63,998 nt of DNA, filler included, from Candidatus Hydrogenedentota bacterium (GCA_040752395.1; 10 parts of 10 records of this genome joined end to end with filler, not necessarily neighbours in it); one strand, 5' to 3'; positions 8,191 to 60,597 are shown, counted from the whole stretch's first letter. Notes: a model not told the origin generated them from the sequence alone. Translations and numbers: made by a program.

Positions 8191-8470
8191 AAGGAGTTGT
8201 CCTGAACGCGGTTTGCGCTCTACACTATTGGGTTCTTGGGTTATTGGGTTATTGCGTTTTTGGGTCTTTGCGTTCTACTTTACAGGAAAGGCACAGAGGC
8301 ACAAAGGCACAAAGTATGAAAAACTAAAGATGATATGAAAAGAGTCGTGAGTCAAAACAGGACTCGAGACTCAAGACTCAAGACTTTTCAGCAGGCTTTG
8401 GTCTCCAGCCGGCTGTAGTCCGTAGCCTGTAGCCCGAATTATTAGAGTTACAGCGTTTTTCGAAGGATGG
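8191..8470 (+). repeat. modular heptamer/octamer hairpin repeat, long copy in cpaB leader
   Basis: GCGCTCTACAC; (TTGGGTTA)n; (GGCACAAA)n; TATGAAAAACTAAAGATGATATG; GAGTCGT/GACTCAA hairpin; CAGCCGGCTG hairpin; TTATTAGAGTTACAGCGTTTTTCGAAGGA. Confidence 0.9.
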
Positions 8471-8477
8471 TATATTA

Positions 8478-9578
8478 ATGGAAAGAAAGAAAATTATCTT
8501 TATAGTGGGGATAGTTTCAGTTGTAGTAGCAATACTTGTAGCTGTTCTGATTATTTTTTTGACAGGCGAAGAGGAGCCACCACCTGTCATACCAACAGCA
8601 GTAACTATACCAGAATCACTTCCTCAACAACCGCCACCACCACCAGAAATAGTTGTAGCCTCAAGACCGATACGTGCACATACAATCCTGACTAATGATG
8701 ATATAACAAAAAAAGTTATGCCAAAACCCTGGAAAGAACCGTATATAGAAGACAAGGACAAAGCTATGTTAGTGGGAAGAATTGTTAAAAATGATATAAG
8801 AAAGGGGCAGGCTGTTCTTAATGACTATCTTTATGTCGGCGAAAAATTCGCATATTTAATACCTCCAAACCTGCGCGCAGTACCTATCCCTGTAACTGAA
8901 CAGATTTCTATACTTTATATGATAAATCCAGGTGACAAAGTAGATGTCTTATGCATCTTCCCTCAAACCTATACTGACCAGCTTATGACAAAAATCCTTA
9001 TTCAAGATGCAGATGTTTTATCAGTTGGTAGAAAATACATCCCTGATTTTATGCGTCAAGCTATGCAGTCACAACCCCAACCTTCATCAGCGCCGGCTGA
9101 AGCTCAACCACAGGCACCGCCACCACCACCAACTGAACTTACTTATAACTTTATTGTTCTTGGTGTCTCGCCTGATGAAGCTGAAAAATTAGTATTAGCT
9201 GAAAAGGTTGGTGAGATAAGACTGCTTCTTCGTGGTGAAGGAAGTACATATAAAACATATACCATCGGCGGCTATAAATCTACTGTTGTCAGTAAAGCAT
9301 ATATGGATAATTATATGATGGAAGCCTCGAAAGACAGATTACAGAATATTATTGAGATATATAAAGGTACAGAATTAAAACATAATTTACAACTCCCACC
9401 CGGGAAACAGCGTGACCGTGCAAAGTATGATGCACTTGTAACTGGCGAAGAATTATCTCGATGGGAAAAGATAAAAGAAGCTCAAATGGAAAAAGCAAAG
9501 ATGATGACCGAGCCATCAGGCCAAAAGCTTATGCAGGAAGAAGGCGAGATCCCAACAGAAGGAGAAACTAAAAAATAA
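8478..9578 (+). CDS. cpaB: Flp pilus assembly protein CpaB (SAF plus RcpC)
   Basis: N-terminal TM, IVVASRPI, LRAVPIPV, PGDKVDV, VSPDEAEKLVLA...IRLLLR. Confidence 0.88.
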   Translation: MERKKIIFIVGIVSVVVAILVAVLIIFLTGEEEPPPVIPTAVTIPESLPQQPPPPPEIVVASRPIRAHTILTNDDITKKVMPKPWKEPYIEDKDKAMLVGRIVKNDIRKGQAVLNDYLYVGEKFAYLIPPNLRAVPIPVTEQISILYMINPGDKVDVLCIFPQTYTDQLMTKILIQDADVLSVGRKYIPDFMRQAMQSQPQPSSAPAEAQPQAPPPPPTELTYNFIVLGVSPDEAEKLVLAEKVGEIRLLLRGEGSTYKTYTIGGYKSTVVSKAYMDNYMMEASKDRLQNIIEIYKGTELKHNLQLPPGKQRDRAKYDALVTGEELSRWEKIKEAQMEKAKMMTEPSGQKLMQEEGEIPTEGETKK

Positions 9579-11308
9579 TGAGAACCAGATATAAAATATT
9601 ACTATTATTCATATTCATATTTATAGTTTCGCCTCTTGCTACTATCTATGCTGATGACCAGAAACCAGTAATCTATGTGCCAGTTGGTAATTCACAGGTT
9701 TTATATATACCGAATAAAATAGAACGTATCGCAATAGGTAACCCTGAGATTATTGATGCAGTCGCTGTTACACAGACTGATGTGGTTTTTCGGGGGATAA
9801 ATGTTGGCTGGTCTTTTGTTCATATCTGGGAAAAAGATGGGAACTCTTATACAATAACAGTACATTCCATAGATGTTATGGCTATAAAGCCTTTTCTTAT
9901 AAGCGGTATCTATGCAGATTTTGATATGAATAAAGGTATTATACTTGAGGGCGAGACTGATGATGAAGATGGTTATAAGCGGATGCTAAAAGAGTTAAAA
10001 ATGCAGTTCGGCGATATATTTATAGACAACGTCACAATCTTACCACCACCACCTCCTCCTCCGGCGTTACCTGATACCTTTTTCCTAAGCGATGAAGAAA
10101 AAAATACTATAAACACAGGTGAGTTACAACTTACAACAAAACTAATAAGCGTTATATCGCGTTCCGCAACTGATATGAAAGATGCTGTGACACCATTACT
10201 TTCAACCAATGGTTCTATTACTGTAGATGCAAAGTCCAATACACTCATTGTAAAAGATTTAGAAGAAAACATAGAAACCATAGAAAAATTTGTAAGAGAC
10301 CTTGACCAACCTACATCTTTACAGGTCCTTATTCAGGCTGAATTTGTAGAGGTGATAAAAGACAAGATAGAAGAGTTGGGCATAGATTTCTCTGCTACTT
10401 TCGGTTCCGCAAATACGCTGAGTTTTTCAGTTGGTAATTCATTAAAAACTGTGGTTACACGAGCCGGAGGCGCTACACCCTCAACATCTATCCTCGACGA
10501 CCAGCTCGGAAGCGAAGCACAGATCGATGCTACAAGCAGCAATTTTAACCCGCTTGAACTATCAAACCTTGATTTATATCTAAGAGCACTTGAAAACAAA
10601 GGCTATCTCAGAAAATTATCTTCACCCAAAATTACAGCCCTCAATCAGCAACTGGCAAAAATAGTCAGAACTGATAAAATTCATTATATCTCAGGTTATA
10701 CCTTTACTTATGATTCAAACGGCGCCATTACCGGCGCATACCCTGTAATCTCAAGTGTAGAAATAGGTATCACACTTGAGATTACACCTACCATAGGACG
10801 TGATGACATTATCTCTGTTAAAATAAAACCAATCGCCTCAAATCTGATAGGTGGCGATATAAGAACCATCCAGGCTTCTGCCGCCGGAACTACTTATTCT
10901 ATTCAAGTCCCTGATATGACAACTCGTTCTGCTGAAGCTGAGATACTTGTTAAAAATGGTTATACATTTGTTATTGGCGGTTTGAGAAATTATGAGGAGG
11001 CATTTGCAAGACAGGAGACACCTTATTTATCTAAAATACCTATACTCGGAAACTTATTTAAAAGAAAGAAAGATATAGACGCAAAAACAGAATTATTAAT
11101 CTTTATCACCGCACAGATTATTGACTCGGATGGCATTTATAAATCTACAGGTAATTATGAATATATCCCTCAATCTGAATTAAAATCTATATACCAACAA
11201 AGCGTTACTAATCCTGCGTTGAACCAAAGAGAGGTTGAGGATACTACTCTCCCAAGATTACCCTTAAAAAAAGATTCTGATGTCCCGGTTATCGATTTAA
11301 CCAAATGA
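9578..11308 (+). CDS. secretin (CpaC-like N-terminus, N3-like domain, secretin domain)
   Basis: IERIAIGNPEIID; DAKSNTLIVKD...LDQP..QVLIQAEFVEV; GITLEITP; PYLSKIPILGNLFK; TELLIFIT. Confidence 0.9.
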   Translation: MRTRYKILLLFIFIFIVSPLATIYADDQKPVIYVPVGNSQVLYIPNKIERIAIGNPEIIDAVAVTQTDVVFRGINVGWSFVHIWEKDGNSYTITVHSIDVMAIKPFLISGIYADFDMNKGIILEGETDDEDGYKRMLKELKMQFGDIFIDNVTILPPPPPPPALPDTFFLSDEEKNTINTGELQLTTKLISVISRSATDMKDAVTPLLSTNGSITVDAKSNTLIVKDLEENIETIEKFVRDLDQPTSLQVLIQAEFVEVIKDKIEELGIDFSATFGSANTLSFSVGNSLKTVVTRAGGATPSTSILDDQLGSEAQIDATSSNFNPLELSNLDLYLRALENKGYLRKLSSPKITALNQQLAKIVRTDKIHYISGYTFTYDSNGAITGAYPVISSVEIGITLEITPTIGRDDIISVKIKPIASNLIGGDIRTIQASAAGTTYSIQVPDMTTRSAEAEILVKNGYTFVIGGLRNYEEAFARQETPYLSKIPILGNLFKRKKDIDAKTELLIFITAQIIDSDGIYKSTGNYEYIPQSELKSIYQQSVTNPALNQREVEDTTLPRLPLKKDSDVPVIDLTK

Positions 11309-12294
11309 GCCGAAGCCACATTACCCTCTCATTATTCTTTTTAATATTTTTAAACTCCTGTAACCAGATATTAGTTGAATATACTTTTATGAATAAAGAT
11401 AAAGGATATTTTAAATTAGTTGTTACAAAATCTGTGCCTTATCTCACGCAGAATGAAGAGGCTAATAGAATAAGAAGTGATACAACGTTTTTTAACTCTT
11501 TCTCAGGGCTTAATTTTACTAAACCTCAAACCGCTTTTAGAAATAGAATACTCCACGCTGTATATTATGGCTTGCATAACTGCAATATCAATAATGTATC
11601 CTCTTCTTTATTCCAGGCAAAAGTAAATGTAACAGAAGGTATCAACTCTGATACTCTAATTATTACTTACATAATCCCTGATTCTCTCTCTGCTAAAGAC
11701 CTCCCGGATACTTCTGAAGTATATGTAAATATAATAATCAATATAAATGGTGAATGCCTTGGTTCAAACGGAACAATATCAGGTTCTAAAATTACTTTTA
11801 ATAAAAAATACACCCGCTCAGATATTAATACTCCAGAAAATTTATTTGTATATTATAAACAAAATCAGGAGATCCCGGCTATCTTAGAGACCAACTATAA
11901 AATTATTGAAAGAGATTTATTCTATTTTAGCACTATGCCGTCTGCCGAATCAAAAAAATTATCAATAGAACACCTGCTTAAATCAAAACCAGGTTCCCAA
12001 AAGACAGGATTTTTCCTGAAACCAGAACTTATACAGCATACTACAAAAGAAGAGTTCCTTGAGTTTATTAACAGTGCGATTGTAAAAAAATATTATGGTA
12101 TAAGAAAGATTTATCCTGTGCATTATTTGAATTTCGACTATATCTTAATCAATCTATACAGGGACTGGGATAGACTTCAAATAGAAGAGAAAAAAGAGTT
12201 TATTTCTTTTCTTTCAGCCAATCAGAAGAACGTATTAAAAAATATCCCTGTTTATCTTGTTAACTCTGATGGCAAACGCCTGATAATTCCCTGA
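11305..12294 (+). CDS. hypothetical lipoprotein
   Basis: Hydrophobic stretch ending LNSC (lipobox-like); overlaps secretin stop. Confidence 0.55.
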   Translation: MSRSHITLSLFFLIFLNSCNQILVEYTFMNKDKGYFKLVVTKSVPYLTQNEEANRIRSDTTFFNSFSGLNFTKPQTAFRNRILHAVYYGLHNCNINNVSSSLFQAKVNVTEGINSDTLIITYIIPDSLSAKDLPDTSEVYVNIIININGECLGSNGTISGSKITFNKKYTRSDINTPENLFVYYKQNQEIPAILETNYKIIERDLFYFSTMPSAESKKLSIEHLLKSKPGSQKTGFFLKPELIQHTTKEEFLEFINSAIVKKYYGIRKIYPVHYLNFDYILINLYRDWDRLQIEEKKEFISFLSANQKNVLKNIPVYLVNSDGKRLIIP

Positions 12295-12299
12295 AAACC

Positions 12300-12445
12300 A
12301 TTGCAATAATCATTTTTAATGGTCTTATTTCTCGACTAAATGGATCAAGAACCAATTTTAATGCTTCCAGTGTTACAGCACCCAATAAATTTTCATCCCC
12401 TTTTTCCCCGAATATAGCTGGTGAGGCTCCTCTCTTATTCTGAAA
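12300..12445 (-). pseudogene. C-terminal remnant of a clan AA aspartyl protease
   Basis: GASPAIFGEKGDENLLGAVTLEALKLVLDPFSREIRPL; no start; cut at the repeat at 12446. Confidence 0.7.
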
Positions 12446-12556
12446 CAGGCTTCAGACTCCGGGCTCCAGCCGGCTGGAGTCCATAGCCTGTAGCCTGTAG
12501 CCCGTCCTGATACCTCTCACTTCTTCCGTTATCTTGCTTCTTGCCTCTTGCTTCTA
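12446..12556 (+). repeat. modular repeat, CAGCCGGCTG hairpin plus pyrimidine module
   Basis: CTCCAGCCGGCTGGAG palindrome, (TAGCCTG)n, CTGATACCTCTCACTTCTTCCGTTATCTTGCTTCTTGC. Confidence 0.9.
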
Positions 12557-12663
12557 AAGTATAAGTTCTACTGCACCAATAACTGAGGCATTACCAATCT
12601 TCTGTCTCCTGTCTCCTTAAATTATAGTACCTTTTTCCTATTGACTCTGTGAGAAAATTCATC

Positions 12664-12691
12664 TTGACAAACTGCAGAAATGGCTTATAAT
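12664..12691 (+). promoter_or_regulatory. sigma70-type promoter upstream of the repeat and tadE-like gene
   Basis: TTGACA-N16-TATAAT. Confidence 0.65.
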
Positions 12692-12714
12692 AGTTATAAT
12701 GATGAAAAAAGTAT

Positions 12715-12993
12715 GAAGTGGGAAGTAGGAATAAGGAGTTTTTGGGTTATTGCGTTTTTGCGCTCTACACAATTTATAAAAAACTAAAGATGATATGAAA
12801 AGAGTCGTGAGTCGCAAGTCGTGAGTCAAAACAGGACTCAAGACTCAAGACTTTTCAGCAGGCTCCGGGCTTCGGGCTCCAGCCGGCTGTAGTCCGTAGC
12901 CTGTAGCCCGTCCTAATACCTCTCACTTCTTCCGTTATCTTGCTTCTTGCTTCTACTTGATATTATTATAGTTACAATGTTTTTCAGAGGAGG
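12715..12993 (+). repeat. modular repeat, long copy ending in the SD of the tadE-like gene
   Basis: Most modules present; ends GTTTTTCAGAGGAGG 8 nt before ATG 13002. Confidence 0.92.
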
Positions 12994-13001
12994 TACTTCA
13001 T

Positions 13002-13759
13002 ATGTTTAACTTATTAAAATTAATAAGAAATCAGAAAGGCCAATCAATCGTCGAGACTGCATATCTGCTCCCTTTGTTAATCGCTGTTATTTATGCAGGC
13101 CTCGAGGTCGCAAATATATACAATAACTGGACTTCTTTTAGAAATGCTGCAAGAACAGGCTGCGCCATCTTAAGCCGCGGCGGCTCTGATACAGAAATAA
13201 AAGATGCTATCTATGAAAATGTAGGAAAAATAATACGATGGGGGTTTGTAGAGTTTCAAGCCGGTAATATCGAGATATTCCCGGCGTACGGTGATCCGGA
13301 TAGAACAATTACTGGTAAACCCGTAGGGGTTCGGATTGAATATAAAGTCGGTTTTAATCTCCCGCTTTTTGCTAATTATGTTGAGCTTGCTGATATGAGT
13401 GTGGGTAATATAAGAAAAGTAAATATGCGTTCTTTAAATGATACTGAAGACGAGTTCTCTGATGCGGGCCATTTGATACCCATCGTTATAAAACAACAGA
13501 CTTTTAAGCGTGGCCAGAGTTATTTAGTAAGAGATGAAGGAGCAACAGGTAACTGGGGTGGTATGAACCTTGATAATGAAGCAGGTGCAGCTGGTGCTAA
13601 TGATATAAGAGATTGGATAACAAATGGCTATCCTGGTGATATAGCTGTTGGTGATATAAGAAATACCCAACCCGGATTTATGAAGGGACCTGTTTTAGAC
13701 GGTATTTTAAGCCGCATATGGGAACATATTACTGAGACCTGGTCCGACCATCCAGTTGA
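13002..13759 (+). CDS. TadE/TadG-like pseudopilin (3' truncated)
   Basis: Prepilin motif KGQSIVETAYLLPLL; AARTG; C-terminal GNWGGMNL...WITNGYPG. Confidence 0.8.
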
Positions 13760-13875: not shown

Positions 13876-15369
13876 ATGATGATAAAAGATTCAAAGATTG
13901 AAAGATTCAAAGATTACTTCCGAATTCCGAATTTTTTAAAGGAAGTTGGTTTTAGGCTACAGGCTACAGGCTACGGATTACAGCCAGCTGGAACCCGGAG
14001 CCTGAAGTCCGAAGTCCGAAGCCAACATATCATCTACTTTTTGCCTTTTGCTTCTTGCTTCTTGCTTCTTGCTTCTTACTTCTTACTTCCTACTTCTTCT
14101 TATTGCCGCATCACCGATGATCTTCGGCTTGGTGCTTATCCAGCGAGTATGGGTGGTGCATTTGTTGCTATGAGTGAGGGGTATCATTCTCTTTACTGGA
14201 ACCCTGCGGGTCTTTCTAAATTTCAAGGGTTGGATATCTCGGATCTTTTTATACCGCAGCCGTACGGAGTCGATGATATCAACCAGAACTATCTCGCGGT
14301 CGCTTATGGTGACAGTATCCGTCGGTTCGGTGCTGGGCTGGCGATGCGGTATCTTGGGGCTGATTTAGAATATGGTTCAGCAGGTGGTAGTATTATCAGT
14401 AGTGTTGATTATGATGAATTTGAATGGATTGTAGGTGGTGGTGTACGGGTTATGACAGACTGGTATGTCGGAATGAATTATAAACATTATTCTATAGAAT
14501 CGAGTCTTCGCGGAACCGAGTTAAGTATTTCGGGTAATGCGATGGATATAGGTACAATTTACTATGTAAGGCCACTTGATTTGAATTTAGGTGCGATGAT
14601 AAGAAATTTTTCTTGTGATTTCGGGAAAGAAGATATTGATCCCACGTATCGAATTGGTTTAAGCAAATCTTTTATTGATAATCATATCAGGTTTGCGATT
14701 GATGTATCTGAAGAAAACGACGCCGCTCTTAATGATGCTGATTTCAGGTTGCACGCAGGCTGTGAGTTTTTACCTGTTAAAGAATTTGGTATAAGAATCG
14801 GGTATGACGACGAAGATATCACAGGTGGTTTTGGGGTCTATTTTGGTAGTGCGGGGCTGGAATACGCATACGTTGATAATGATAGACTCGAAGGAACTCA
14901 TCAGGTCTCTTTATCCTACAGGTTTGGGAAACCTAAATCAGTCAAAGAATTAGAAAAAGAAGCTGAGAAACGAAAAGCTAAAATTGCTGAAAAAGAAGAA
15001 GAAAAACAGCCTGTTATGCAAAAAGTAAAAAAAGAGGAGGTTGTTCTGGCTAATGATTATTCAATCTGGATTGAAAACTTTAGGGGGATTGATGTGCCGG
15101 ATGAAGTAAAATGGCTTGAGATGGCTATAAAAGACATTATGATAAATTATTTCAAAAGAGAGACTGATCTCACTCTCGCCAACTCCCCCAATAAAGCATA
15201 TTTTATTATATCTGGAACATATAAAAAAACCAATGATCAAATATCGATATATGCAAGGATTACAGATAAATCAGAAAGAATAAAAATAGAGACTGTTCTT
15301 ACATCCCAGCAAAAAATATTTAATGGTTGTGAACAATTAGCTGAAAAAATAATAAGAAGTATAAAATAA
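13876..15369 (+). CDS. PorV/FadL-like outer-membrane beta-barrel protein with C-terminal extension; N-terminus encoded by repeat DNA
   Basis: GAYPASMGGAFVA...SLYWNPAGL; RIGY; GFG; EYAY; THQVSLSYRFG. Confidence 0.8.
   Translation: MMIKDSKIERFKDYFRIPNFLKEVGFRLQATGYGLQPAGTRSLKSEVRSQHIIYFLPFASCFLLLASYFLLPTSSYCRITDDLRLGAYPASMGGAFVAMSEGYHSLYWNPAGLSKFQGLDISDLFIPQPYGVDDINQNYLAVAYGDSIRRFGAGLAMRYLGADLEYGSAGGSIISSVDYDEFEWIVGGGVRVMTDWYVGMNYKHYSIESSLRGTELSISGNAMDIGTIYYVRPLDLNLGAMIRNFSCDFGKEDIDPTYRIGLSKSFIDNHIRFAIDVSEENDAALNDADFRLHAGCEFLPVKEFGIRIGYDDEDITGGFGVYFGSAGLEYAYVDNDRLEGTHQVSLSYRFGKPKSVKELEKEAEKRKAKIAEKEEEKQPVMQKVKKEEVVLANDYSIWIENFRGIDVPDEVKWLEMAIKDIMINYFKRETDLTLANSPNKAYFIISGTYKKTNDQISIYARITDKSERIKIETVLTSQQKIFNGCEQLAEKIIRSIK
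13953..14100 (-). repeat. modular repeat in reverse orientation inside the CDS
   Basis: (AGGCTAC)n, CAGCCAGCTG, CCAACATATCATCT, (TTCTTGC)n. Confidence 0.9.
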
Positions 15370-16693: not shown

Positions 16694-16880
16694 CTCCTCT
16701 GAAAAACATTGTAACTCTAATAATTCGGGGTACAGGCTACAGGCTACGGACTACAGCCGGCTGGAGCCTGGGACACGGAGCCCACATATCATTTACTTCT
16801 TGCTTCTTGCCTCGGCCGACTACAATGTGCTCCTACGAACATCTCTCTCACTTTTAGCTTTTAACTTTTTACTTTTTACT
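16694..16880 (-). repeat. modular repeat ending in the SD of larC
   Basis: Reverse complement reads CAGCCGGCTGTAGTCCGTAGCCTG...TTATTAGAGTTACAATGTTTTTCAGAGGAG. Confidence 0.88.
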
Positions 16881-16890
16881 TGTTATACAC

Positions 16891-17865
16891 CTATAACCGA
16901 GTGCTAACTCTAAGAGACTTAAATACCTCCTTTTTTAATATCGGGAGTCCTAAACCATAGACCCTGTCAGCACCTTTCTTCCCTATGTCAAGTGTTAGCC
17001 TCTTTAGATGTTCGTATGCTTCGTCAATGTTGGTGAGCGGTGTTTTACCACCGTAGATTTGATGTTTGGCTATGGCAAGACTAAGAACACCTGCTATATG
17101 CGGCGTGGCCATTGAGGTACCTGAAAATGAGGCATATCTATTTTCTGGTATAGTTGATAAAATTTCAAAACCAGGTGCTACAACCCCCATTTTTTTCATA
17201 CCTTCTCCTGTGGTGCTAAATTCAGTTATTTTTTTATTTGAAGCGATAGCTCCAACAGCTATGCAGAGTTTCTCTTCAGCATAACGTGCAGGATATCCTA
17301 ACTCGCTCCAGTTCCCCTGGTTCCCCACTGCACAGACTGTTATAACCCCATTTTTCTTTGCCTCTATCAGTGCCTGCTTTAAACTTAAAAAGGGTTCAGG
17401 AGACCCAAGCGACATTGAAATTACCTTAATGTCATATTTTTTAATGTTCTCTATTACCCAGTAAATCCCATTCACTATCCAACTTATATCGCCCTCCCCA
17501 TAATCATTCATTACCTTTACTGGTATAATCTTTGTTTTTGGCGCAACACCAATGATGCCAAGCCCATTTTTATTAGCTGCTATGATACCTGTGACATGAG
17601 TACCATGTGACTGATGGTCATTTATATTATTTCTATTTTTTGAACTAAAATTTATGCCGATGATTTTATTCTTTTTAAATATAAAAGATTCTTTTAAATC
17701 CTTATGATAAGGCGAGGTTCCTGTATCAAGAACCGCTACTTTCACTCCCTGCCCCTGGCAAAGTTTCCAGATATCAGGAGCTCCCAATAGTCTAACGCCC
17801 CAGTCAATGGTCTCGGAAACTTTTCTTTTTATGAAAATTTGTTTATATGGAATAAGTTTAAACAT
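16891..17865 (-). CDS. S8 subtilisin-like serine peptidase, no obvious signal peptide
   Basis: VAVLDTG, HGTHVTG, GTSMATPH triad motifs. Confidence 0.93.
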   Translation of the reverse strand: MFKLIPYKQIFIKRKVSETIDWGVRLLGAPDIWKLCQGQGVKVAVLDTGTSPYHKDLKESFIFKKNKIIGINFSSKNRNNINDHQSHGTHVTGIIAANKNGLGIIGVAPKTKIIPVKVMNDYGEGDISWIVNGIYWVIENIKKYDIKVISMSLGSPEPFLSLKQALIEAKKNGVITVCAVGNQGNWSELGYPARYAEEKLCIAVGAIASNKKITEFSTTGEGMKKMGVVAPGFEILSTIPENRYASFSGTSMATPHIAGVLSLAIAKHQIYGGKTPLTNIDEAYEHLKRLTLDIGKKGADRVYGLGLPILKKEVFKSLRVSTRL

Positions 17866-19729: not shown

Positions 19730-19735
19730 AGAACG

Positions 19736-19905
19736 CTCCTACGAAAAGTCTTGAGTCTTGAGTCGTCAGTCTTCTTTTGATTCTCGACTCTTTGACTTGT
19801 AGACTTATCTTAGACTAACGACTGTTTTCATATCATCTCCTCTACGCTTTTCCGTCTCTTGCCTCTTACTTCTTTCGTTATCTTGCCTCTACATATCATC
19901 TTCTA
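19736..19905 (-). repeat. diverged modular repeat ending in the SD of glmS
   Basis: Reverse complement GATGATATG...GCAAGATAACG...GACTCAAGACTCAAGACTTTTCGTAGGAG-CGTTCT-ATG. Confidence 0.8.
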
Positions 19906-20630: not shown

Positions 20631-20807
20631 CTAAAATGTGCTGAAAAAATCGAAGCAGGTGGCGTCTTAATAAATGAGATACCCACTTTCAGGGTCGATA
20701 ATATGCCGTATGGCGGCACAAAGGGTAGCGGGCTTGGCAGAGAAGGACCAGAATTCGCTATAAAAGAGATGACTGAAGAAAAACTCATCATCTTTGACCA
20801 GATTTAA
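20631..20807 (+). CDS. aldehyde dehydrogenase, C-terminal end (5' truncated)
   Basis: [33 protein letters not shown]. Confidence 0.9.
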
Positions 20808-20809
20808 CC

Positions 20810-20997
20810 TCTCTCTTCTTACTTATTACTTTTTCATAGGAGTCGTCATAAGCGCGGTTTGCACTCTACACAATATATGAAAAACTAAAGATGATATGTT
20901 GGCTTCAGGCTCCGGGCTTCGGACTCCAGCCGGCTGTAGTCCGTAGCCCGTAGCCTGTACCCCGAATTATTAGAGTTACAGCGTTTTTCGAAGGAGT
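20810..20997 (+). repeat. modular repeat copy
   Basis: GCACTCTACAC, TATGAAAAACTAAAGATGATATG, CAGCCGGCTG hairpin, TTATTAGAGTTACAGCGTTTTTCGAAGGAG. Confidence 0.9.
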
Positions 20998-24039: not shown

Positions 24040-24266
24040 TTACAGCTTATTTAGCATCTCTATATCTTTCATCAGCCAGGCGAGCTTGCGTTTTACTTCC
24101 TCATTATATATAAAAAATGCACAATGTACCTGTAAAAGACCTTCACCAATTTTATTTACNNNNNNNNNNNNNNNNNNNNNNNNNNNNNNNNNNNNNNNNN
24201 NNNNNNNNNNNNNNNNNNNNNNNNNNNNNNNNNNNNNNNNNNNNNNNNNNNNNNNNNNNATACTGA

Positions 24267-25319: not shown

Positions 25320-25420
25320 TATATCTTCTCTTACTTACTCCTTTGGTATCTCCTCTGAACGTGTGAAATAATCATCATTAATTCGGTGGAGTTCCTTCAT
25401 CTTGCTTCTTGCCTCTTTCG

Positions 25421-26035
25421 TTATCTTGCTTCTATTTCACTTCCCACTTCTTCACCACCTATAACTTGAGAGATTACCTCCCTGGTTCTATAATATGGCC
25501 ACCCATTGTTTATAGCATTTTCAAGCCATCTTATAAATTCATCGGGATTAATTAATTTTTCTTTATATTCTTTCCAGTTTTTTAAACACTCTTTATGATA
25601 CTCGTACTCTATTGTATAATTATAATACAATTCTTCAATATTACCAAAATCTGTTTCTTCTTTTCCATAATCACCTTTACAAATACTATGTTTTATAACA
25701 TTATACTCAAGTATATTATCATTATTCCATCTTAAATCAAGGGGATAAAGTTTGCAGATAGGTGGTTTATAATTATGAATAGAACATTTATTATCTTTTA
25801 AAAATATACAACCTTCTTCTGTTTTCTTAAAACCTATAAGATATCTGCCTTGTTCTGTGACAAGGTAAAGGTCATCTGATACGTCTTTTGTAGCACCCTC
25901 TTTATAAAATTCTACAAATTCTGAGGGTCGTATCCCTGTATTATGCATTATTTTAGCAATATCATAGATTGTCAAAATCGCTGTGTAATATCTGCAGCAC
26001 TCACCACAATTTTTACACTTGAATTTTATTAGCAT
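25421..26035 (-). CDS. YkgJ family cysteine cluster protein
   Basis: CKNCGECC, CIFL...CSIHNYKPPICKLYP. Confidence 0.88.
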   Translation of the reverse strand: MLIKFKCKNCGECCRYYTAILTIYDIAKIMHNTGIRPSEFVEFYKEGATKDVSDDLYLVTEQGRYLIGFKKTEEGCIFLKDNKCSIHNYKPPICKLYPLDLRWNNDNILEYNVIKHSICKGDYGKEETDFGNIEELYYNYTIEYEYHKECLKNWKEYKEKLINPDEFIRWLENAINNGWPYYRTREVISQVIGGEEVGSEIEAR

Positions 26036-26161
26036 GGTTATATATTATATACATTATTTGATATTTTCCAAGTAAAATGTAATGCCCTGGTATTAAATTT
26101 TCGGTTATCGATTTTCCGTTTTCTTGCTTCTTGCTTCTTGAATGATGGAGTAGCTGATATT

Positions 26162-27067: not shown

Positions 27068-27225
27068 GTATTAAGTAATCGACGGGCTTCTTTAATCTCG
27101 GTTCGCGACCAGTTCTCTTCAAAATCTATTATCTCACCTGTATTTACATCAATTACAAGTTTAGCATTTTTGTTATTCTCTTTTATTATTACTGCCCTAT
27201 TTTTATCTCTTTTGATAATCTCCAT
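27064..27225 (-). CDS. small hypothetical protein (53 aa)
   Basis: MEIIKRDKNRAVIIKENNKNAKLVIDVNTGEIIDFEENWSRTEIKEARRLLNT; AGGAG 7 nt upstream; below ORF-track cutoff. Confidence 0.6.
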   Translation of the reverse strand: MEIIKRDKNRAVIIKENNKNAKLVIDVNTGEIIDFEENWSRTEIKEARRLLNT

Positions 27226-27231
27226 AGATAG

Positions 27232-27289
27232 TCTCCTATGAAAAGTCTTGAGTCTTAAGTCCTGTTTTGACTCACGACTTGCGACTTGT
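27232..27289 (-). repeat. modular repeat (GAGTC/GACTC hairpin) at contig end
   Basis: Reverse complement CAAGTCGTGAGTCAAAACAGGACTTAAGACTCAAGACTTTTCATAGGAG. Confidence 0.85.
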
Positions 27290-27593: not shown

Positions 27594-27804
27594 ATAAATA
27601 TATTCTCTAAAAAAGTCATTTTCAAGTGTTCTATACATCTTTGTGCCTCTGTTCCTTTGTCACTTTGTGCTTTACGAACAGTTTTTTTTCAGAGACCTTA
27701 TATAATTATATTGACAATGAATTGTTTTTGCAATATTTAAAGGGCGATAGGTTTTCGGTGGTCGGTTCACCGATAACCTAAAACCCAAAACCTATAACCG
27801 AATA

Positions 27805-28013
27805 TCTTGCTTCTTGCTTCTACTTGATATCATTAGAGTTACAATGTTTTTCGAAGGAGTACTCATGAGCGCGTTTGCGCTCTACACGAGGTATGAAAAA
27901 CTAAAGATGATATGTTGGCTTCGGGCTCCGGGCTTCGGGCCCCAGCCGGCTGTAGTCCGTAGCCTGTAGCCTGTACCCCGAATTATTAGAGTTGCGAAGT
28001 TTTTATGAGGAGG
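27805..28013 (+). repeat. composite repeat with two end-modules, ending in the SD of rlmB
   Basis: TTGCTTCTACTTGATAT...CGAAGGAG then GAGCGCGTTTGCGCTC, D and F modules, ...GAGGAGG. Confidence 0.9.
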
Positions 28014-30781: not shown

Positions 30782-30790
30782 ACCAGCACT

Positions 30791-30990
30791 TTGCTTCTTG
30801 CTTCTACTTGATATTATTATAGTTACAATGTTTTTCGAAGGAGTCAACATGAGCGCGTTTGCGCTCTACACTATTGGGTTCTTGGGTTCTTGCGTTATTG
30901 CGCTCTACACAAAGGATGAAAAACTAAAGATGATCCGTAGCCTGTAGCCTGTACCCCGAATTATTAGAGTTACAGCGTTTTTCAGAGGAG
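30791..30990 (+). repeat. composite repeat between ppx and ppk1, ending in the SD of ppk1
   Basis: Same layout as 27805; ends GTTTTTCAGAGGAG 7 nt before ATG. Confidence 0.92.
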
Positions 30991-30997
30991 ATTAGCG

Positions 30998-33993: not shown

Positions 33994-34093
33994 NNNNNNN
34001 NNNNNNNNNNNNNNNNNNNNNNNNNNNNNNNNNNNNNTTAATTAATTAANNNNNNNNNNNNNNNNNNNNNNNNNNNNNNNNNNNNNNNNNNNN

Positions 34094-38328: not shown

Positions 38329-38628
38329 TTATACTGGGAAAACTTTTCTTGAAATCATATCTACACTTGCTTCGAGTTTGTTTACTCTTTCTGCAACATC
38401 AAGCTTGTCAATAATCTTTCTTAAAAGCTCGCTATGAAACTGAAGTTGCTGTTGGACTGCATTAAAGCGATTATCCATCTGTTTCTGCATCACATTAAAT
38501 CTATCATCCATCTGCTTCTGCATCGCTTCGAATCGGCGATCAGAGTCTTCTCGTAATTCCCTTATTTCAGGAATAAGAGTCTCAACTATTACCTTTCTTA
38601 AAGCTTCAACAAAATCAAGCGGCGTCAT
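38329..38628 (-). CDS. small coiled-coil protein with 11-residue repeats
   Basis: RRFEAMQKQMDDRFNVMQKQMDNRFNAV; GAGGTG SD. Confidence 0.75.
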   Translation of the reverse strand: MTPLDFVEALRKVIVETLIPEIRELREDSDRRFEAMQKQMDDRFNVMQKQMDNRFNAVQQQLQFHSELLRKIIDKLDVAERVNKLEASVDMISRKVFPV

Positions 38629-45984: not shown

Positions 45985-46051
45985 AGCAAGATAACGGAAA
46001 GAAAGATAACGGATAAAGTAAGAAGTAAGAAGTGGGAAGTGAGAAGTATCA
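45985..46051 (-). repeat. pyrimidine module of the repeat, reverse orientation
   Basis: GCAAGATAACGG...GAAGTAAGAAGTGGGAAGTGAGAAGTATCAG, reverse complement of 47073-47120. Confidence 0.85.
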
Positions 46052-46846: not shown

Positions 46847-46954
46847 ACTACAGGGTATAATATATTTTTTATTTATGATATCTTCAATATATTTTATTTT
46901 TATTCTTGATTTTTTATTTAAGATATGATAGAAGCATTTTTCGATAAAAAACTA

Positions 46955-47174
46955 TAGATGATATGAAAAGAGTCGTGAGTCGTGAGTTAAACAGGACTCA
47001 AGACTCAAGACTTTTCAGCAGGTTCCGGGCTTTTGGATCCAGCTGGCTGTAGGCCGTAGGCTGTAGCCTGTCCTGATACTTCTCACTTCTTACTTCTTAC
47101 TTTTTCCGTTATCTTGCCTCTTGCTTCTTGCTTCTACTTGATATTATTATAGTTACAATGTTTTTCAGAGGAGG
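46955..47174 (+). repeat. modular repeat ending in the SD of leuB
   Basis: GATGATATG, E, F and G modules; ...GTTTTTCAGAGGAGG 7 nt before ATG. Confidence 0.92.
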
Positions 47175-47827: not shown

Positions 47828-47943
47828 GAAACATTATTGATTGCTGCATAAATAAGAGGCACAGAGGCTCAAAGTATGAAAAACCCTTGCTTCTTGCTTC
47901 TATATAATGCAGTGGTCAATAAATTTTTATTGGAGGTAAGAGA

Positions 47944-50359: not shown

Positions 50360-50944
50360 CTACCGCCCACAGCTTAAAACAATCGCTGAAATAAGCGGTA
50401 TAAAAAAATTATCTTTATTTCCCCGAAATATTAATTCAGCTATCGAAGAAACGATAGCGGTAAAAAACAGGATAGTCAAGCTGAAATTAGCATCGAATAA
50501 ATTGTAATTTATAATTAGAGATATTATTAGAGTGGTGCAAAAAAAAGAGAGCGTTCCTTCAAGAGTTTTGGTACCAGAAATTTTTATCCTGCCAAATTTT
50601 TTTCCTATTAAAGAAGCAACAGAATCACCAAAGATAAGAGGAACAAGAGATAAGATAGCCACAGATTTTGGGAAGAGGCATATTATTATAAGGACACCTG
50701 ATATAAAATACACCGTACCAGCAGGTTCCACAGCCTCAGAATCCCGCATAAATTGTTTAAAAAAGAATTGAAATAAAGTATTTATAAAACAAAAAGCAAG
50801 TCTTAGAATTTCTGCTATCGAAACTATTATTAAGATTATTGATACAATTATTTTTGTTGAATCTGAGTTGAAAAAGTAAATAATAAAAGGGAATATCAAC
50901 CCAAAACAGATATGAAAAATTTTACGTTTTATTTCACAAGACAT
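50360..50944 (-). CDS. diacylglycerol/polyprenol (phytol/dolichol) kinase family
   Basis: RKIFH, GDSVASLIG..FG, KTLEG, DNFFIP. Confidence 0.85.
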   Translation of the reverse strand: MSCEIKRKIFHICFGLIFPFIIYFFNSDSTKIIVSIILIIVSIAEILRLAFCFINTLFQFFFKQFMRDSEAVEPAGTVYFISGVLIIICLFPKSVAILSLVPLIFGDSVASLIGKKFGRIKISGTKTLEGTLSFFCTTLIISLIINYNLFDANFSLTILFFTAIVSSIAELIFRGNKDNFFIPLISAIVLSCGR

Positions 50945-51260
50945 AGCTTCACAATGACGGTGTTTGGTTTTCTTGCATCTTGCTTTTTAATCCCACAGAA
51001 GACTGAGGGAATATGGCGATCAGATAAAAAAATATTGCATATTAATATAAATCTATATATGATTTAACAAGAGTTGTAAAAGGATTATTTAATGCTGTAT
51101 AAATAACGAGACTGTAAAAAGAAAAGACACTTCTTATTTCTTACTTTTTTCGTTATCTTGCTTCTTGCTTCTAAACAAAGGCACAAAGGTACAAAGATAA
51201 AAAGATTAAATGCAAATTGCAAATTAGTCTCATTACTAATGCAGAGGTCAATAACTTATT

Positions 51261-52370: not shown

Positions 52371-53618
52371 ATGGGAAGAATTTTGCTTTTTATTATAGAT
52401 TTTATCTTTATTATTACAGCTTCTTTTATCGCTTTCTATTTAAGATTTAATACCCTTGCTACTGAAGAGTTAGTTGAATGGATTAGATTCTTGAAAAGCC
52501 TGCCGTTTTACATATCGTTTGTTATGCTCTATCTCATCTTAAATAACGAATATAGAAGATTAATGCTGGGAAATCTCTGGGACAGGATAGGGACAGCCAT
52601 CGAGGGTATAACCATAGGTGTCTTTTTAACTATATGTGCTTATATTCTTGGTAATGATAGAGAATTCTCAAGATTATTAATTATATACCAATGGTTATTG
52701 AGTGTAGTATTTATCTTGATAATAAGAATCGTTGATTATAATTTTCAGATAAGAAAAATAAATGGTTGCATTATTATAAAAGAAGGCGAACCTATAACGA
52801 TGAAAAATGTTACACCGGTAAAATTTAAAAATGAAAATTTATGGGAAGAGATAGGTAAAACAGAGTGCGATTATGTTATTATTCCCGTAGGTTTAGTAAG
52901 AGAAGAAGGTTTTGGTTTTATTGAAAGAATATTAAGATATATTGATATCCCGATACTTTTTCTTCCACAAAAACAGGATTGCGTTTTTTTATCTGGTAAT
53001 CCCGTTATATATAATGAAAGAACCTATTTCCTCTTAAGTAAAGAAACAGTTTTTTTTAAAAAAGTTCTTAAAAGATTTATTGATGTTATACTATCCGTAA
53101 CTTTGATTATATTTTTAACTCCATTATTTTGCATCATTTATATTTTAATTAAAATCAGCAGATATGGTTCCTGTATTTTTATCCAGGAAAGGGTTGGTCA
53201 ATACGGTAAGATATTCAGACTCTATAAATTTAGAACGATGAGAGAGGGGGTAGCTGGCCCCAGGGTGACTGATATAAACGATCCGCGAATTACTGCAATC
53301 GGAAGAATATTAAGAAGATTCAGTCTTGATGAATTACCACAGCTTTTTAATATATTAAAGGGTGATATGAGTTTTGTGGGACCGAGACCGGAAATAAGAG
53401 AGATAGTTGAAAATTATGATGAGTGGCAGAGGAGAGTCCTATCAGTGAAACCAGGGTTAACCGGGTTATCCCAGGTATCAGGCAGAGATGACCTCTCTAT
53501 AAATGAAAAATTAATACTTGATATTTATTATGTCCATCATTATAAAATCTGGCTTGATTTATGGATTATGTTAAAAACATTTATTGTAGTTTTACAGGGC
53601 AAGGGTGCAAGATATTAA
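52371..53618 (+). CDS. polyprenyl-phosphate sugar phosphotransferase
   Basis: KRFID, YKFRTM, DPRIT, LDELPQ, GDMSFVGPRPE, KPGLTG. Confidence 0.92.
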   Translation: MGRILLFIIDFIFIITASFIAFYLRFNTLATEELVEWIRFLKSLPFYISFVMLYLILNNEYRRLMLGNLWDRIGTAIEGITIGVFLTICAYILGNDREFSRLLIIYQWLLSVVFILIIRIVDYNFQIRKINGCIIIKEGEPITMKNVTPVKFKNENLWEEIGKTECDYVIIPVGLVREEGFGFIERILRYIDIPILFLPQKQDCVFLSGNPVIYNERTYFLLSKETVFFKKVLKRFIDVILSVTLIIFLTPLFCIIYILIKISRYGSCIFIQERVGQYGKIFRLYKFRTMREGVAGPRVTDINDPRITAIGRILRRFSLDELPQLFNILKGDMSFVGPRPEIREIVENYDEWQRRVLSVKPGLTGLSQVSGRDDLSINEKLILDIYYVHHYKIWLDLWIMLKTFIVVLQGKGARY

Positions 53619-53619
53619 A

Positions 53620-53796
53620 TAGAGGCAAGAGGCAAGATAACGGAAAGCAAGATAACGAAAGAGGCACAAAGGCACAAAGGATATTAGGGGATGGGTCATA
53701 GGGGATGGGGTATATTAGGGGTCGGGAGTCGAGAGTCGTGAGTCAAAACAGGACTCAAGACTCAAGACTCAAGACTTTTCAGCAGGCTCTGGGCTT
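53620..53796 (+). repeat. modular repeat running into the contig end
   Basis: (GAGGCAA), GCAAGATAACG, (GGCACAAA), GAGTCGTGAGTCAAAACAGGACTCAAGACTCAAG. Confidence 0.9.
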
Positions 53797-53896
53797 NNNN
53801 NNNNNNNNNNNNNNNNNNNNNNNNNNNNNNNNNNNNNNNNTTAATTAATTAANNNNNNNNNNNNNNNNNNNNNNNNNNNNNNNNNNNNNNNNNNNN

Positions 53897-54365
53897 GAGA
53901 TAAAATTCCTCGCCAGGTTTTTGACTGATACTGCCATAAATTACCAGCATCAAAAGGTAATAACGGAATGATATTTATCAGAGCTAACAAAAGATTGGAT
54001 TCTAAAAAGAAGATAAAAAAAGCTTTAAGCAAAGTAGTGAAATGAATAAATTTTAACAAAATAAATGTTATACAACCAAGAATAATATTTATAATAATTC
54101 CAGCAAGAATCATTTTGGGAGGGTCGTTTTTTGGATTAATATATCTTTCAGTATGTATATGCGGTGAATGTGCCCACCCTATGATAGGTAAATCAGCAAA
54201 ATAAAATAATAATGGTCCTATAAAAGAACCAAGCGCATCAAAAGGAATAAAAATAAGCTTTATTCTTCTGATTTTATCAAAACCGTCATCACCTAAAAAA
54301 TACGCTGTAAAACCATGAGCAAACTCATGAATAATAAGCGCCAGAGCAAAAACCAAAAGTCTCAT
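53897..54365 (-). CDS. site-2 protease family (M50), 3' truncated
   Basis: HEFAH, NIIPLLPFDAG. Confidence 0.8.
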
Positions 54366-54377
54366 TTATTCTACTAT

Positions 54378-54477
54378 ACCCCCTCTGCTGAAAAACTTTG
54401 TGACTATAATAATATCTAATAGAGGCAAGAAGCAAGAAGCAAGATAACGAAAAAAGTAAGAAGTGAGAGGTATCAGA
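54378..54477 (-). repeat. modular repeat end-module between two M50 genes
   Basis: Reverse complement CTGATACCTCTCACTTC...TTGCTTC...GATATTATTATAGTCACAAAGTTTTTCAGCAGAGG. Confidence 0.85.
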
Positions 54478-54506
54478 AAAAGGAAGTTCATTATCTTACT
54501 TCTAAT

Positions 54507-56808: not shown

Positions 56809-56929
56809 AATATCTCGGAGTAAATCCCACCACCAATTGTGGTGACGAGCCATCAGCTCGCCACTACTTCTACTACTCGTTTGGTGTGTGGGAGTAAAAG
56901 CCCTTGCTGGCTTTTAAAAGAGGGAATCT

Positions 56930-59376: not shown

Positions 59377-59409
59377 TTTATCAGCCCTACCACTCCTTTT
59401 AATCTTTAT

Positions 59410-59605
59410 AGCCCCGTCCTGCTGTGTGTAGCGACTCTGTTTGACCCCGAAACCATCAGGTGGGTGCCGAAAGCCGAGGCTTAGTTCTCCAGCACTTTAT
59501 TATAATAAAATAAAGTGAGGGGCGTCACCGCTTGTCGGCGACACGGCTCCCTTTAATAATAGTGTTGGATCGAACATCGCCGCACATCACATACAGGACA
59601 GGAAT
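59410..59605 (-). ncRNA. ssrS: 6S RNA
   Basis: About 195-nt rod: 5' CCUGUCCUG pairs with 3' CAGGACGGG; GAUCCAACAC...AAGGGAGC and GGCACCCACCUG...GGGGUCAAA; upstream of rarA, a known ssrS context. Confidence 0.8.
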
Positions 59606-59609
59606 AACT

Positions 59610-60341
59610 CTATATTTTTAAAATTATATTACCAGCAAAGTCATAAATTATTATACTTTTAATATAAATCTTTCCTTCTTTATTAATGCTATCCATTACT
59701 AAATTTAATCTATTAATTATTTTTTCTTTGATAGGCAGCTTTAATTTTTCCCATAAAGAAGTAAAAAGTGACAATTCTAAACTATTACCGTAATAATCTA
59801 AACAAGAAAAGATTTCACCTCTGCCGGTATTTACTTTATTCAACTCATCTCTAATCTTTGAAATCTCGGCTGTCAAATAAGGATTATCCAAAACATCAAA
59901 ATGTAAACCTATCCAGCTGATATCATCCTCTTTTACAAAACCATTCACATCGTTATACAAAACCTGAATCCACTCATTATTCCCCTTAATATTTTTAATA
60001 AGCGAATTTTTATTCAGTCGGGCTAAAACCCTTGAAGAAGTATTAGCTTCACTATAGAGTAGAACCCCATCATTTTTTACCCTGTAATAATTATAATCTC
60101 TCATTCCTGCTCTCAACTTCAGAAGTTCTTCTTTTTTATCTTTTACAACATTGTTAATACTCACTTGATTGTTCCTGTTAGATATAAAATAGACAAAATA
60201 CCCTAAAAAAACTATTAAGATTAAAATAGCGCTCTGTATCAGCGGTATACGTATCTTTTCATAGAAACTCTCTTCAGCAACGTGTAACTCACCCTTTATA
60301 TAACCATGATATTCTGTATCTTTTTTTTCTTTCTTACGTAA
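59610..60341 (-). CDS. membrane-anchored SH3 domain protein (5' truncated)
   Basis: Frame open to contig end, including a TM segment; LYSEANTSSRVLARL...WIQV...GFV. Confidence 0.7.
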   Translation of the reverse strand, partial: LRKKEKKDTEYHGYIKGELHVAEESFYEKIRIPLIQSAILILIVFLGYFVYFISNRNNQVSINNVVKDKKEELLKLRAGMRDYNYYRVKNDGVLLYSEANTSSRVLARLNKNSLIKNIKGNNEWIQVLYNDVNGFVKEDDISWIGLHFDVLDNPYLTAEISKIRDELNKVNTGRGEIFSCLDYYGNSLELSLFTSLWEKLKLPIKEKIINRLNLVMDSINKEGKIYIKSIIIYDFAGNIILKI

Positions 60342-60441
60342 NNNNNNNNNNNNNNNNNNNNNNNNNNNNNNNNNNNNNNNNNNNNTTAATTAATTAANNN
60401 NNNNNNNNNNNNNNNNNNNNNNNNNNNNNNNNNNNNNNNNN

Positions 60442-60597
60442 TCAAGACTTTTCAGCAGGCTACGGGCTTTTGGCTCCAGCCGGCCGCAGGCCGTAGCCTG
60501 TAGCCTGTCCTGATACCTCTCACTTCTTCCGTTATCTTGCTTCTTGCTTCTTGCTTCTACTTGATATTATTAGAGTTACAATGTTTTTCAGAGGAGA
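60442..60597 (+). repeat. modular repeat starting at contig edge
   Basis: E tail, F hairpin, G module, GTTTTTCAGAGGAG. Confidence 0.9.

Follow-up and report, generated by a model that had tools for sequence, protein, structure and literature searches.

A stretch of 63,998 nt from a Candidatus Hydrogenedentota bacterium (GCA_040752395.1), hereafter the window, carries a family of mosaic repeats built from interchangeable tandem units of 7 or 8 nt. These repeats recur throughout its intergenic DNA, are assembled from modules according to a grammar, contain complementary arms that can form hairpins, and lie in sense orientation in front of genes, with a terminal AGGAG unit at Shine-Dalgarno spacing from start codons. 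We lean towards the view that they represent a lineage-specific mosaic interspersed repeat, which would be transcribed with the downstream gene, provide its ribosome-binding site (RBS) and act in cis through its hairpins.

An earlier, sequence-only reading had listed about 18 full or partial copies at 19 coordinates on 8 of the 10 contigs of the window. Exact and fuzzy scans with its module strings (A to G and End, with E as (GAGTCGT)n-AAAACAG-(GACTCAA)n) recovered modules at all 19 of the 19 and on contigs 2, 3, 4, 5, 7, 8, 9 and 10. The module scan gave 24 spans in the window; those at 38053 and 57315 are isolated 14-nt matches that may be due to chance, and three partial copies (8003-8018 and 27640-27655, both on the minus strand, and 50971-50984) extend the earlier list. 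Matched modules summed to about 2.4 kb over the 24 spans, approximately one quarter of the 9018 nt taken as intergenic. The 21-nt pattern of the end-module was matched 10 times, nine times exactly and once with two mismatches, where 0.00 matches were expected from 100 shuffles, and module D was matched 6 times, again with 0.00 expected from shuffles. Chance is excluded as the source of the repetition.

A periodicity is evident without any list of modules. In the 9018 nt of intergenic DNA, bases were identical to those 7, 14 and 21 positions away with frequencies of 0.356, 0.327 and 0.308, respectively, with neighbouring lags at about 0.28-0.29, while coding DNA gave 0.276 at lag 7. With many intergenic arrays of period 7 and this difference between intergenic and coding DNA, the element falls into the class of long simple sequence repeats with 7-nt units; heptanucleotides are the commonest class of long simple repeat in prokaryotes (Mrazek 2007, via PMC4679880; here and below, statements about published systems refer to the excerpted text of the cited source).

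Orientation was uniform. Every one of the end-modules (10/10) and of the D modules (6/6) points toward the next downstream gene, and by our reading of the lists of spans and gene starts, modules of matching orientation precede about 20 of some 53 gene starts. No copy was found between convergent gene ends when the spans in the window were compared with the gene starts. The copies are confined to intergenic DNA, where they fill 5' leaders or whole spacers; four of them (30782, 20806, 16890 and 53619) begin at most about 10 nt from an upstream stop codon and take up the entire spacer.

The 3' boundary of the repeat is the unit TTTTC-NN-AGGAG, a U-rich tract plus AGGAG, beyond which the copies diverge. 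This unit occurs 11 times in exact form, against 0.155 expected, and also closes E modules that abut glmS and a small open reading frame (ORF) at 27225. An ATG or TTG follows 5-10 nt after the unit at 8 of the 11 occurrences, two of the eight being the ATG that opens a module A behind an upstream end-module. The glmS protein aligns with its family from residue 1, which indicates that its start is well placed, and the predicted starts of ppk1 and rlmB fit as well, since these proteins align from residues 4 and 3, respectively. When 51 gene starts were compared, many of those that lack the element had no comparable AGGAG; on our reading, this scarcity means that most strong Shine-Dalgarno sites of the window belong to the element. 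Furthermore, four copies are immediately preceded by promoter-like sites with scores of 10-12 out of 12 (at 12664-12691, 8138-8180, 54551-54523 and 27733-27705).

Module order, complementary arms and folding

The sequence-only reading had described a largely fixed order of modules, and the order D<E<F<G0<G<End was indeed kept in every copy with at least two of these modules, although exceptions exist: the copies at 27805 and 30791 are concatenations, in which G-End is followed by A...End, and C follows G at 51130. Arrays beyond those first described were also found, namely AAGTAGG, AAAGATTC, a GGTTTTC/AAAACC hairpin, TGCAAAT, and a 14-16-nt unit at 53681. The claim that unit number varies held up on alignment of the E copies, which differ by whole 7-nt steps; whole units are inserted in either arm, and the left and right unit counts are unequal. 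The arrays are short, mostly of 2-4 units in the tandem-repeat table.

Most modules are complementary pairs, and the unique connectors A, D and End join the arrays. E-left (GAGTCGT)n is complementary to E-right (GACTCAA)n, F-left is complementary to F-right around the palindrome CAGCCGGCTG, the pairing of B with C is rich in G:U, and the purine-rich AAGTAGG or AGCAAGA units on the 5' side are complementary to G0/G on the 3' side. Six of each 7 bases per arm are paired, and thus each pair of arms can form a hairpin with one mismatch per unit. B units are similar to the 3' half of A, and a repeated GCGCTCTACAC flanks B at 30791, which together suggest that arrays may grow out of the unique connectors by slippage. 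As a genome-wide signal in its own right, the GCCGGC palindrome of the F loop was rejected, since 7 of its 9 occurrences are simply F modules.

The F helix had 89% of 210 cells paired over 10 copies, compared with 24-50% when the register was slid by 1-3 columns. Folding of two full copies against dinucleotide shuffles gave z = -2.5 and -5.2, and the sense and antisense RNAs of the same two copies had energies of -92.1 vs -67.5 and -100.6 vs -80.4 kcal/mol. The F hairpin itself is energetically symmetric. The hairpins are real as sequence features.

Distribution and likeness to known repeats

The Rfam scan suggested by the sequence-only reading (release 15) returned no family for the element when the whole window was searched at the gathering threshold and at E<=0.1, the only match being 6S RNA, and the element region 12296-13010 searched at E<=1 gave only a miRNA model with 17.6 bits against a cutoff of 72 bits. 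No match was found in plasmid and phage collections by blastn with one full copy. A scan of genome contigs with the end-module pattern gave at least one true extra copy among the matches listed; this copy (L003) is on a contig of 2198 nt from a metagenome-assembled genome (MAG), which starts within module A, continues as A-D-F-End and runs into a small ORF. Among the same listed matches, those in an Aureispira MAG and in Deefgea had none of the other modules and were set aside as chance.

At the protein level, a 72-aa stop-to-stop translation over G-End-A-D-F gave four matches (P0001-P0004), all from a single Candidatus Hydrogenedentota MAG and annotated as 'hypothetical proteins'. These are translations of further copies in other module orders, e.g. 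A-B-G-End, and are probably spurious gene calls. The 72-aa frame had 0 matches among 43 candidates when compared with longer proteins, and a 61-aa frame of the opposite strand gave no candidate protein. A 69-aa frame searched against 1.84 billion representatives gave one weak match, to a 589-aa protein with 28% identity spread over 7 stretches; we took it as low-complexity noise. This protein-level proxy detects only copies over which an ORF was called. By these matches, the window most likely derives from the organism of that MAG or from a near relative, within a phylum of the FCB group. As far as it is testable, the earlier proposal that the element is lineage-specific is supported by the Rfam, plasmid and phage searches and by protein proxies from only one Hydrogenedentota MAG, and the restriction to one lineage is provisional. 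In the literature we found no description of this element, nor of repeats in Hydrogenedentota.

BOX, REP/BIME and STRR repeats, which had been named as conceptual analogues, were all retained as comparators, and REP2 and TAACTGA arrays were added. The element does not appear to be a member of the BOX, REP2, TAACTGA or Nostoc heptamer families; it has no Rfam match, no TAACTGA unit and no MITE-type terminal repeats, and the promoter-like sites lie outside the repeat.

Pneumococcal BOX elements (boxA-(boxB)n-boxC, with Streptococcus suis variants that carry extra box modules) are composite and intergenic, are predicted to form stem-loops, and are co-transcribed with their neighbours (PMC3049150). 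The Hydrogenedentota element shares with them fixed outer modules around a variable tandem inner array, predicted stem-loops, an apparent lack of a transposase of its own and apparent confinement to one lineage (PMC3049150). The BOX description, with one inner module of tens of nt, sets it apart, since it uses at least eight different 7-/8-nt units as complementary arms; its strict sense orientation, its terminal ribosome-binding unit and its host organism are further differences from BOX.

Neisseria REP2 (and Borrelia IR sequences) lie directly upstream of ORFs and carry the RBS, and sometimes the ATG, of the downstream gene (PMC3184786). Like REP2, the element has internal stem-loops, no general terminal inverted repeats and a putative RBS within the repeat, and is in effect a repeated 5' leader (PMC3184786). 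In contrast to REP2, which is a unit of 120-150 bp with a promoter and is neither modular nor built of heptamers in the excerpted account, its promoter-like sites are outside the repeat and copies are also found inside operons. Its RBS unit is present in 11 exact copies and an ATG lies within the repeat only at End-to-A junctions; no homology to REP2 is claimed.

TAACTGA heptamer repeats occur in marine Beggiatoaceae, some Cyanobacteria and Bacteroidetes, and have been proposed to act on translation (PMC4679880). Both systems place forward heptamer arrays a few nt from the starts of functionally unrelated genes (PMC4679880). The TAACTGA system differs in that it has a single unit, is not described in the excerpted text with paired arms or connectors, and replaces the canonical Shine-Dalgarno sequence, whereas here that sequence is supplied. 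Neither the TAACTGA unit nor a rotation of it is present among the 128 rows of the tandem-repeat table of the window.

REPs are mobilised by RAYT transposases. Like the REP/BIME mosaics and REPINs of Proteobacteria, the element combines hairpin palindromes with short motifs and is abundant, intergenic and oriented with respect to transcription. Module F is a palindromic hairpin with GTAG in each unit of its right arm; in REPs, a tetranucleotide of this sequence is conserved beside the hairpin. In STRR arrays, single units form longer runs, without a grammar of paired arms and connectors (a comparison of layout and not of sequence), and the element resembles these cyanobacterial heptamers in being a genome-wide set of intergenic tandem heptamers. 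Unlike REP/BIME, the copies here are at 5' ends, upstream of starts and not at convergent 3' ends, and no RAYT is present among the ORFs scanned in the 64 kb. Many small bacterial repeats sit at the 3' ends of genes and are co-transcribed (PMC3184786). For Nostoc heptamers, a regulatory role near start codons has been proposed (10.1101/2022.06.06.494920).

Proposed role and alternative explanations

On the reading that we favour, the element would be transcribed within the mRNA of the downstream gene, its terminal AGGAG unit would be the RBS used by that gene, and the hairpins upstream would act in cis on the transcript by affecting its stability, its processing or the insulation of the binding site. 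Replication slippage would alter unit numbers, and copies or modules may have spread among leaders either by gene conversion at modules that they share or by a mobilising activity acting in trans. The former route would account for junctions being conserved and modules interchangeable; the two are inseparable on these data.

Several results weigh against this proposal. Three of the 11 terminal units have no start codon 5-10 nt on; one has its ATG at 20 nt, and one is the orphan copy at 60442..60597, which has no usable start codon and is followed by its next gene (60718) 120 nt on, behind a promoter-like sequence of that gene's own. Promoter scans compared with shuffles gave 53 matches vs 47.4 expected, 41 vs 25.5 and 30 vs 40.1, without a clear excess overall, and the promoter matches are therefore weak evidence. 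Module F is inverted at 13953, and TGCAAAT units are found in both orientations relative to genes. When 15 copies were folded with shuffled controls, z was below -2 in 8 of the 15 on each strand; the claim of a sense-strand folding advantage was dropped as compositional, and, as the antisense folds as well as the sense, structure could matter at the DNA level. The F helix showed no covariation beyond shuffles over 10 copies (one double-change pair against a shuffled mean of 1.0), a test made uninformative by the high similarity of the copies. Predicted accessibility of the Shine-Dalgarno region in 10 leaders was 0.29-0.58 with no consistent pattern, and systematic sequestering or exposure of this region was rejected on that account. 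Finally, the evidence base consists of 64 kb of small contigs from one assembly plus one extra contig, and such contigs are repeat-enriched. Altogether, within the suggestion of a structured RNA leader, the leader part is supported by orientation, position and the terminal Shine-Dalgarno unit, and the structured-RNA part gains no support from covariation, which showed no excess, or from folding, which was not strand-specific; we infer the level at which the hairpins act from orientation and position, not from structure statistics.

A selfish or neutral non-autonomous element, MITE- or REPIN-like and with no host role, is the best of the alternatives, and one that we regard as possible though doubtful. 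Orientation and position would then reflect tolerated insertions only; an insertion may, for example, survive only if it restores an RBS without terminating or blocking the gene. Consistent with this, near-identical copies lie at unrelated loci with no functional theme (cpaB, larC, glmS, rlmB, ppk1, recD2, proB), some copies are truncated or orphan (60442, 12446), and three contig ends break inside copies, as had been noted before (27289 in E, 53796 in F and 60442 in E2). The F copies carry stops in all three sense frames (8/8) and repeat GTAG in their right arms, and the 9-nt AGGAGTCGT lies on both sides of the A...End part of the copy 20806..20996 (at 20810). This flanking duplication was seen at one copy only, and the other copies share only AGGAG on both sides. 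A search for the terminal inverted repeats of a MITE found none in general; 6 copies gave local hairpins (F, GGTTTTC) and matches in AT-rich promoter regions, and the outer AAGTAGG/G0 pairing in the copy at 12715 needs G:U pairs. The ORF scans gave no match to a transposase, a Y1/RAYT protein or a reverse transcriptase, although the window spans only 64 kb; NCBIfam was run on 45 of the 57 ORFs that reach 100 aa, with 12 overlapping or end-truncated ORFs left out, and Pfam on 24 ORFs, including 5 of those 12. The earlier statement that the window holds no transposase is thus good for the ORFs scanned. Furthermore, purifying filters alone hardly explain a 10/10 orientation together with Shine-Dalgarno spacing. 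Copy number and near-identity do speak for a non-autonomous mobile element, as had been proposed, and the lack of general terminal inverted repeats and of a consistent target duplication speaks against it; the element may be mobile in this way.

It is quite unlikely, in our view, that the heptamer arrays are sites for a nucleic-acid-binding protein, so that the genes bearing the element would form a post-transcriptional or transcriptional regulon. The same units do recur in sense near the start codons of many genes, and the lag-7 periodicity runs throughout intergenic DNA. There are also precedents: S1, Csp or CsrA-type binders were proposed for heptamer arrays upstream of starts, in the case of the Beggiatoaceae TAACTGA repeats (MacGregor 2015, PMC4679880), and for Nostoc heptamers a preprint reports that deletion of a heptamer repeat changed recO promoter activity and the response to NtcA and LexA (10.1101/2022.06.06.494920). 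The difficulty is that at least eight different units are present, mostly as complementary pairs, whose hairpins would bury single-strand sites; moreover, this analysis yielded no candidate binding protein.

A short upstream ORF, running from the ATG of module A to the stop in the right arm of F, might control the downstream gene through its peptide or through its translation. At 27848 and 30832, the AGGAG of an end-module is followed after 5 nt by the ATG of a module A, with frames there of 34 and 32 codons (read by eye), and the related MAG annotates four such frames, P0001-P0004. However, the two window copies of A that lack a preceding End have another codon in place of the ATG (CTG at 8191 and ATA at 20810) and are put out of frame by one additional G, which weakens this explanation, and P0001, read back by eye, suggests a third copy in which the ATG has been lost. 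Units of 7 or 8 nt in variable number cannot keep a frame, the peptides vary with module content, and protein searches found no homologues outside the one MAG. We consider such a peptide very unlikely.

Phase variation, in which slippage would change the unit number at a locus within a population and so switch or tune expression, is highly improbable. Unit numbers differ between copies by whole units, and repeats in a 5' untranslated region that tune expression are known from Moraxella uspA2 (PMC4679880). Against this, the arrays are as short as described above, the associated genes are housekeeping genes, and the variation was seen between loci only, in one assembly. Similar tuning by repeats in 5' untranslated regions is reportedly found in Haemophilus. 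An assembly artefact, in which chimeric joins or collapsed repeats produce the pattern, would fit a fragmented assembly with some contig ends inside copies and an imperfect scaffold join (identical 127 nt flanking the N gap 24160-24259), but has a negligible probability, since at least nine copies are contig-internal with unique genes on both sides and differ by substitutions and unit numbers, and further distinct copies are on an independent contig and in four annotated ORFs from other contigs.

A more far-reaching idea, which we think unlikely, is that the repeats make up a genome-wide RNA 'grammar', whereby about one third of gene starts share heptad-hairpin leaders and one ribosome-binding unit and form a large post-transcriptional regulon. 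A protein or nuclease dedicated to binding the repeats would read the leaders, or expression would be tuned gene by gene through the unit number of the arms, as in a rheostat; if this were true, regulation would ordinarily evolve, among other ways, through modules exchanged from one leader to another. Few parts of bacterial genomes are as poorly understood as small interspersed repeats, and, to our knowledge, the families described so far are drawn almost entirely from a handful of cultured Proteobacteria, Firmicutes and Cyanobacteria. The present family, from a candidate phylum, joins three features otherwise seen separately, i.e., BOX-like modularity, heptamer arrays and a REP2-like repeat-borne RBS. 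If its leaders are functional, a large share of genes would use one translation-initiation cassette, and the family would offer a compact natural system for repeat-driven rewiring of expression. On the practical side, such repeats break short-read assemblies and yield spurious 'hypothetical proteins' such as P0001-P0004.

Individual copies and other features of the window

The window consists of 10 contigs joined by N spacers with a TTAATTAATTAA linker. Their decrease in length, from 6860 to 3557 nt, suggests that the assembly is a fragmented draft, and G+C is about 30-39%. By NCBIfam and Pfam ORF scans, the gene content is that of ordinary bacterial housekeeping and envelope functions, with aspS, hisS, hisC, a tad/flp pilus cluster, a PorV-like gene, larC, glmS, rlmB, ppx, ppk1, hflKC, recD2, proB, dapF, murI and rarA among the genes named.

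A partial copy at 7969..8021 (-), with C units at 8003-8018 beside TTTCCAA-type heptamers, is upstream of and co-oriented with hisC (6913-7893, -). The full copy 8186..8469 (+) starts just downstream of promoter-like sites at 8138-8180, reads AGGAG and then A-B-C-D-E-F-End, and stops 9 nt before the cpaB ATG (8478). The 708-nt spacer after ORF 11305-12294 holds a partial copy, F-G0-G, at 12446..12555 (+). A sigma-70-like site scoring 12/12 (TTGACA-16-TATAAT, 12664-12691) lies just upstream of the full copy 12698..12992 (+), which reads (AAGTAGG)n, AGGAG, then B-A'-D-E-F-G0-G-End, and whose AGGAG is 9 nt before the ATG (13002) of a TadE-like gene.

The copy 13885..14106 (+), 25 nt from a contig start, is made of (AAAGATTC)n, (TTCCGAA)n, the inverted F hairpin and about 10 G-like heptamers, and lies upstream of a PorV/PorQ-family gene. 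The longest PorV-like ORF at 13876-14170 (+) runs through this repeat, and the family match begins only at residue 86; automatic annotation therefore probably adds a false N-terminal extension of translated modules.

On the minus strand, the copy 16694..16890 (complement-of-G units, the 3' half of D, F and End) fills the spacer between a subtilase-like gene (16891-17865) and larC, with AGGAG 10 nt before a TTG at 16683. The copy 19736..19905 (-) has complement-of-G/G0, the 3' half of D and a long E hairpin, and ends in TTTTC-GT-AGGAG 6 nt before the glmS ATG (19729). The glmS gene (17897-19729, -) thus has a repeat element for its leader (19730-19905), in which the Rfam scan gave no match to the glmS ribozyme. 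Directly after the stop of a partial upstream ORF, the copy 20806..20996 (+) begins with a G0-like tract and TTTTC-AT-AGGAG, followed by A-D-F-End; this is the copy whose ATG (21017) stands 20 nt after AGGAG.

G units alone, in plus-strand form, are found at 25400..25424, in a 100-nt spacer upstream of a minus-strand gene (24267-25319). At 26110..26142 (+), ATTTTCG-type heptamers and then G units stand directly before ORF 26138-27067. The copy 27228..27289 (-), which is cut by a contig end, comprises an E hairpin and TTTTC-AT-AGGAG, 7 nt before the ATG of a 53-codon ORF (27066-27225). C units at 27640..27655 (-) are about 50 nt upstream of a minus-strand gene that starts near 27596, with a promoter-like site at 27733-27705 (-) upstream of them. 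The double copy 27745..28010 (+) reads GGTTTTC/AAAACC heptamer hairpin, G, End, then ATG-A, D, F and a variant End, where GAGGAGG is 5 nt before the rlmB ATG (28019). All 216 nt of the ppx-ppk1 spacer consist of modules (30782..30997, +), in the order G, End, ATG-A, B, the 3' half of A, D, the right arm of F, End, with AGGAG 7 nt before the ppk1 ATG (30998).

Upstream of recD2 (43739-45922, -), the partial copy 45985..46048 (-) has an AAAGATT-type tract, G0-type heptamers (CACTTCT/TACTTCT) and G. The copy 46935..47173 (+), D-E-F-G0-G-End, places AGGAGG 7-8 nt before the ATG at 47182, in an ORF that is cut by a contig end, and a short copy at 47855..47901 (+), with C, the 5' half of D and G, is upstream of a small Cys-rich ORF. 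Plus-strand G-type units at 50960..50990 adjoin the start of a minus-strand gene (50360-50944). The partial copy 51130..51225 (+), upstream of proB (51261), reads G0, G, C and then AAAGATAA plus TGCAAAT units. Right after the stop of 52371-53618, the copy 53619..53796 (+) contains complement-of-G/G0, C, the 14-16-nt repeat, E and the start of F, where a contig end cuts it. A promoter-like site scoring 11/12 (54551-54523, -) is just upstream of the copy 54378..54506 (-), which has G0-G and a variant End with 2 mismatches and lies upstream of 53841-54365 (-). The last copy, 60442..60597 (+), is cut by a contig start and retains the end of E2, F, G0, G and End.

The window has further features. 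The sequences 24033-24159 and 24260-24386, on either side of the 100-N gap at 24160-24259, are identical over 127/127 nt; this looks like a k-mer overlap left unresolved by scaffolding and may mean that the assembly used k = 127, in which case the breaking of contigs at repeats of that length would be explained. The stretches 3659-3901, 4931-4972 and 5266-5459 hold a 194-nt direct repeat, 95% identical, and an exact 42-nt repeat; both duplicate parts of a GNAT acetyltransferase ORF (4846-5442), with about 1.3-1.6 kb between the duplicates. A 25-nt inverted repeat lies at 3971-4025. Overlapping ORFs at 4085-4841 (+) encode a nucleotidyltransferase (Polbeta/NTP_transf_2) and a HEPN domain, and by their domains look like an MNT-HEPN toxin-antitoxin-type pair.

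At 34042-38121 (-), a large uncharacterised protein is encoded by an ORF of 1359 aa, for which NCBIfam gave no match and Pfam gave only a weak right-handed beta-helix. Upstream of hflK, in a spacer of 710 nt, lies a 33-nt tandem duplication (38460-38524; 2.0 copies, 87% matches) that is not related to the heptamer modules. The 6S/SsrS RNA gene at 59407-59607 (-) is the sole Rfam match in the window (70.9 bits, E = 5.4e-12). Finally, ORF 60718-61770 contains in-frame tandem repeats at 61377-61611 (+), of 21/63 nt (6.6 copies) and 30 nt (2.3 copies), and its N-terminus matches Leptospira Lsa33/LipL45-type (FecR-like) models, making its product a candidate repeat-rich surface protein.

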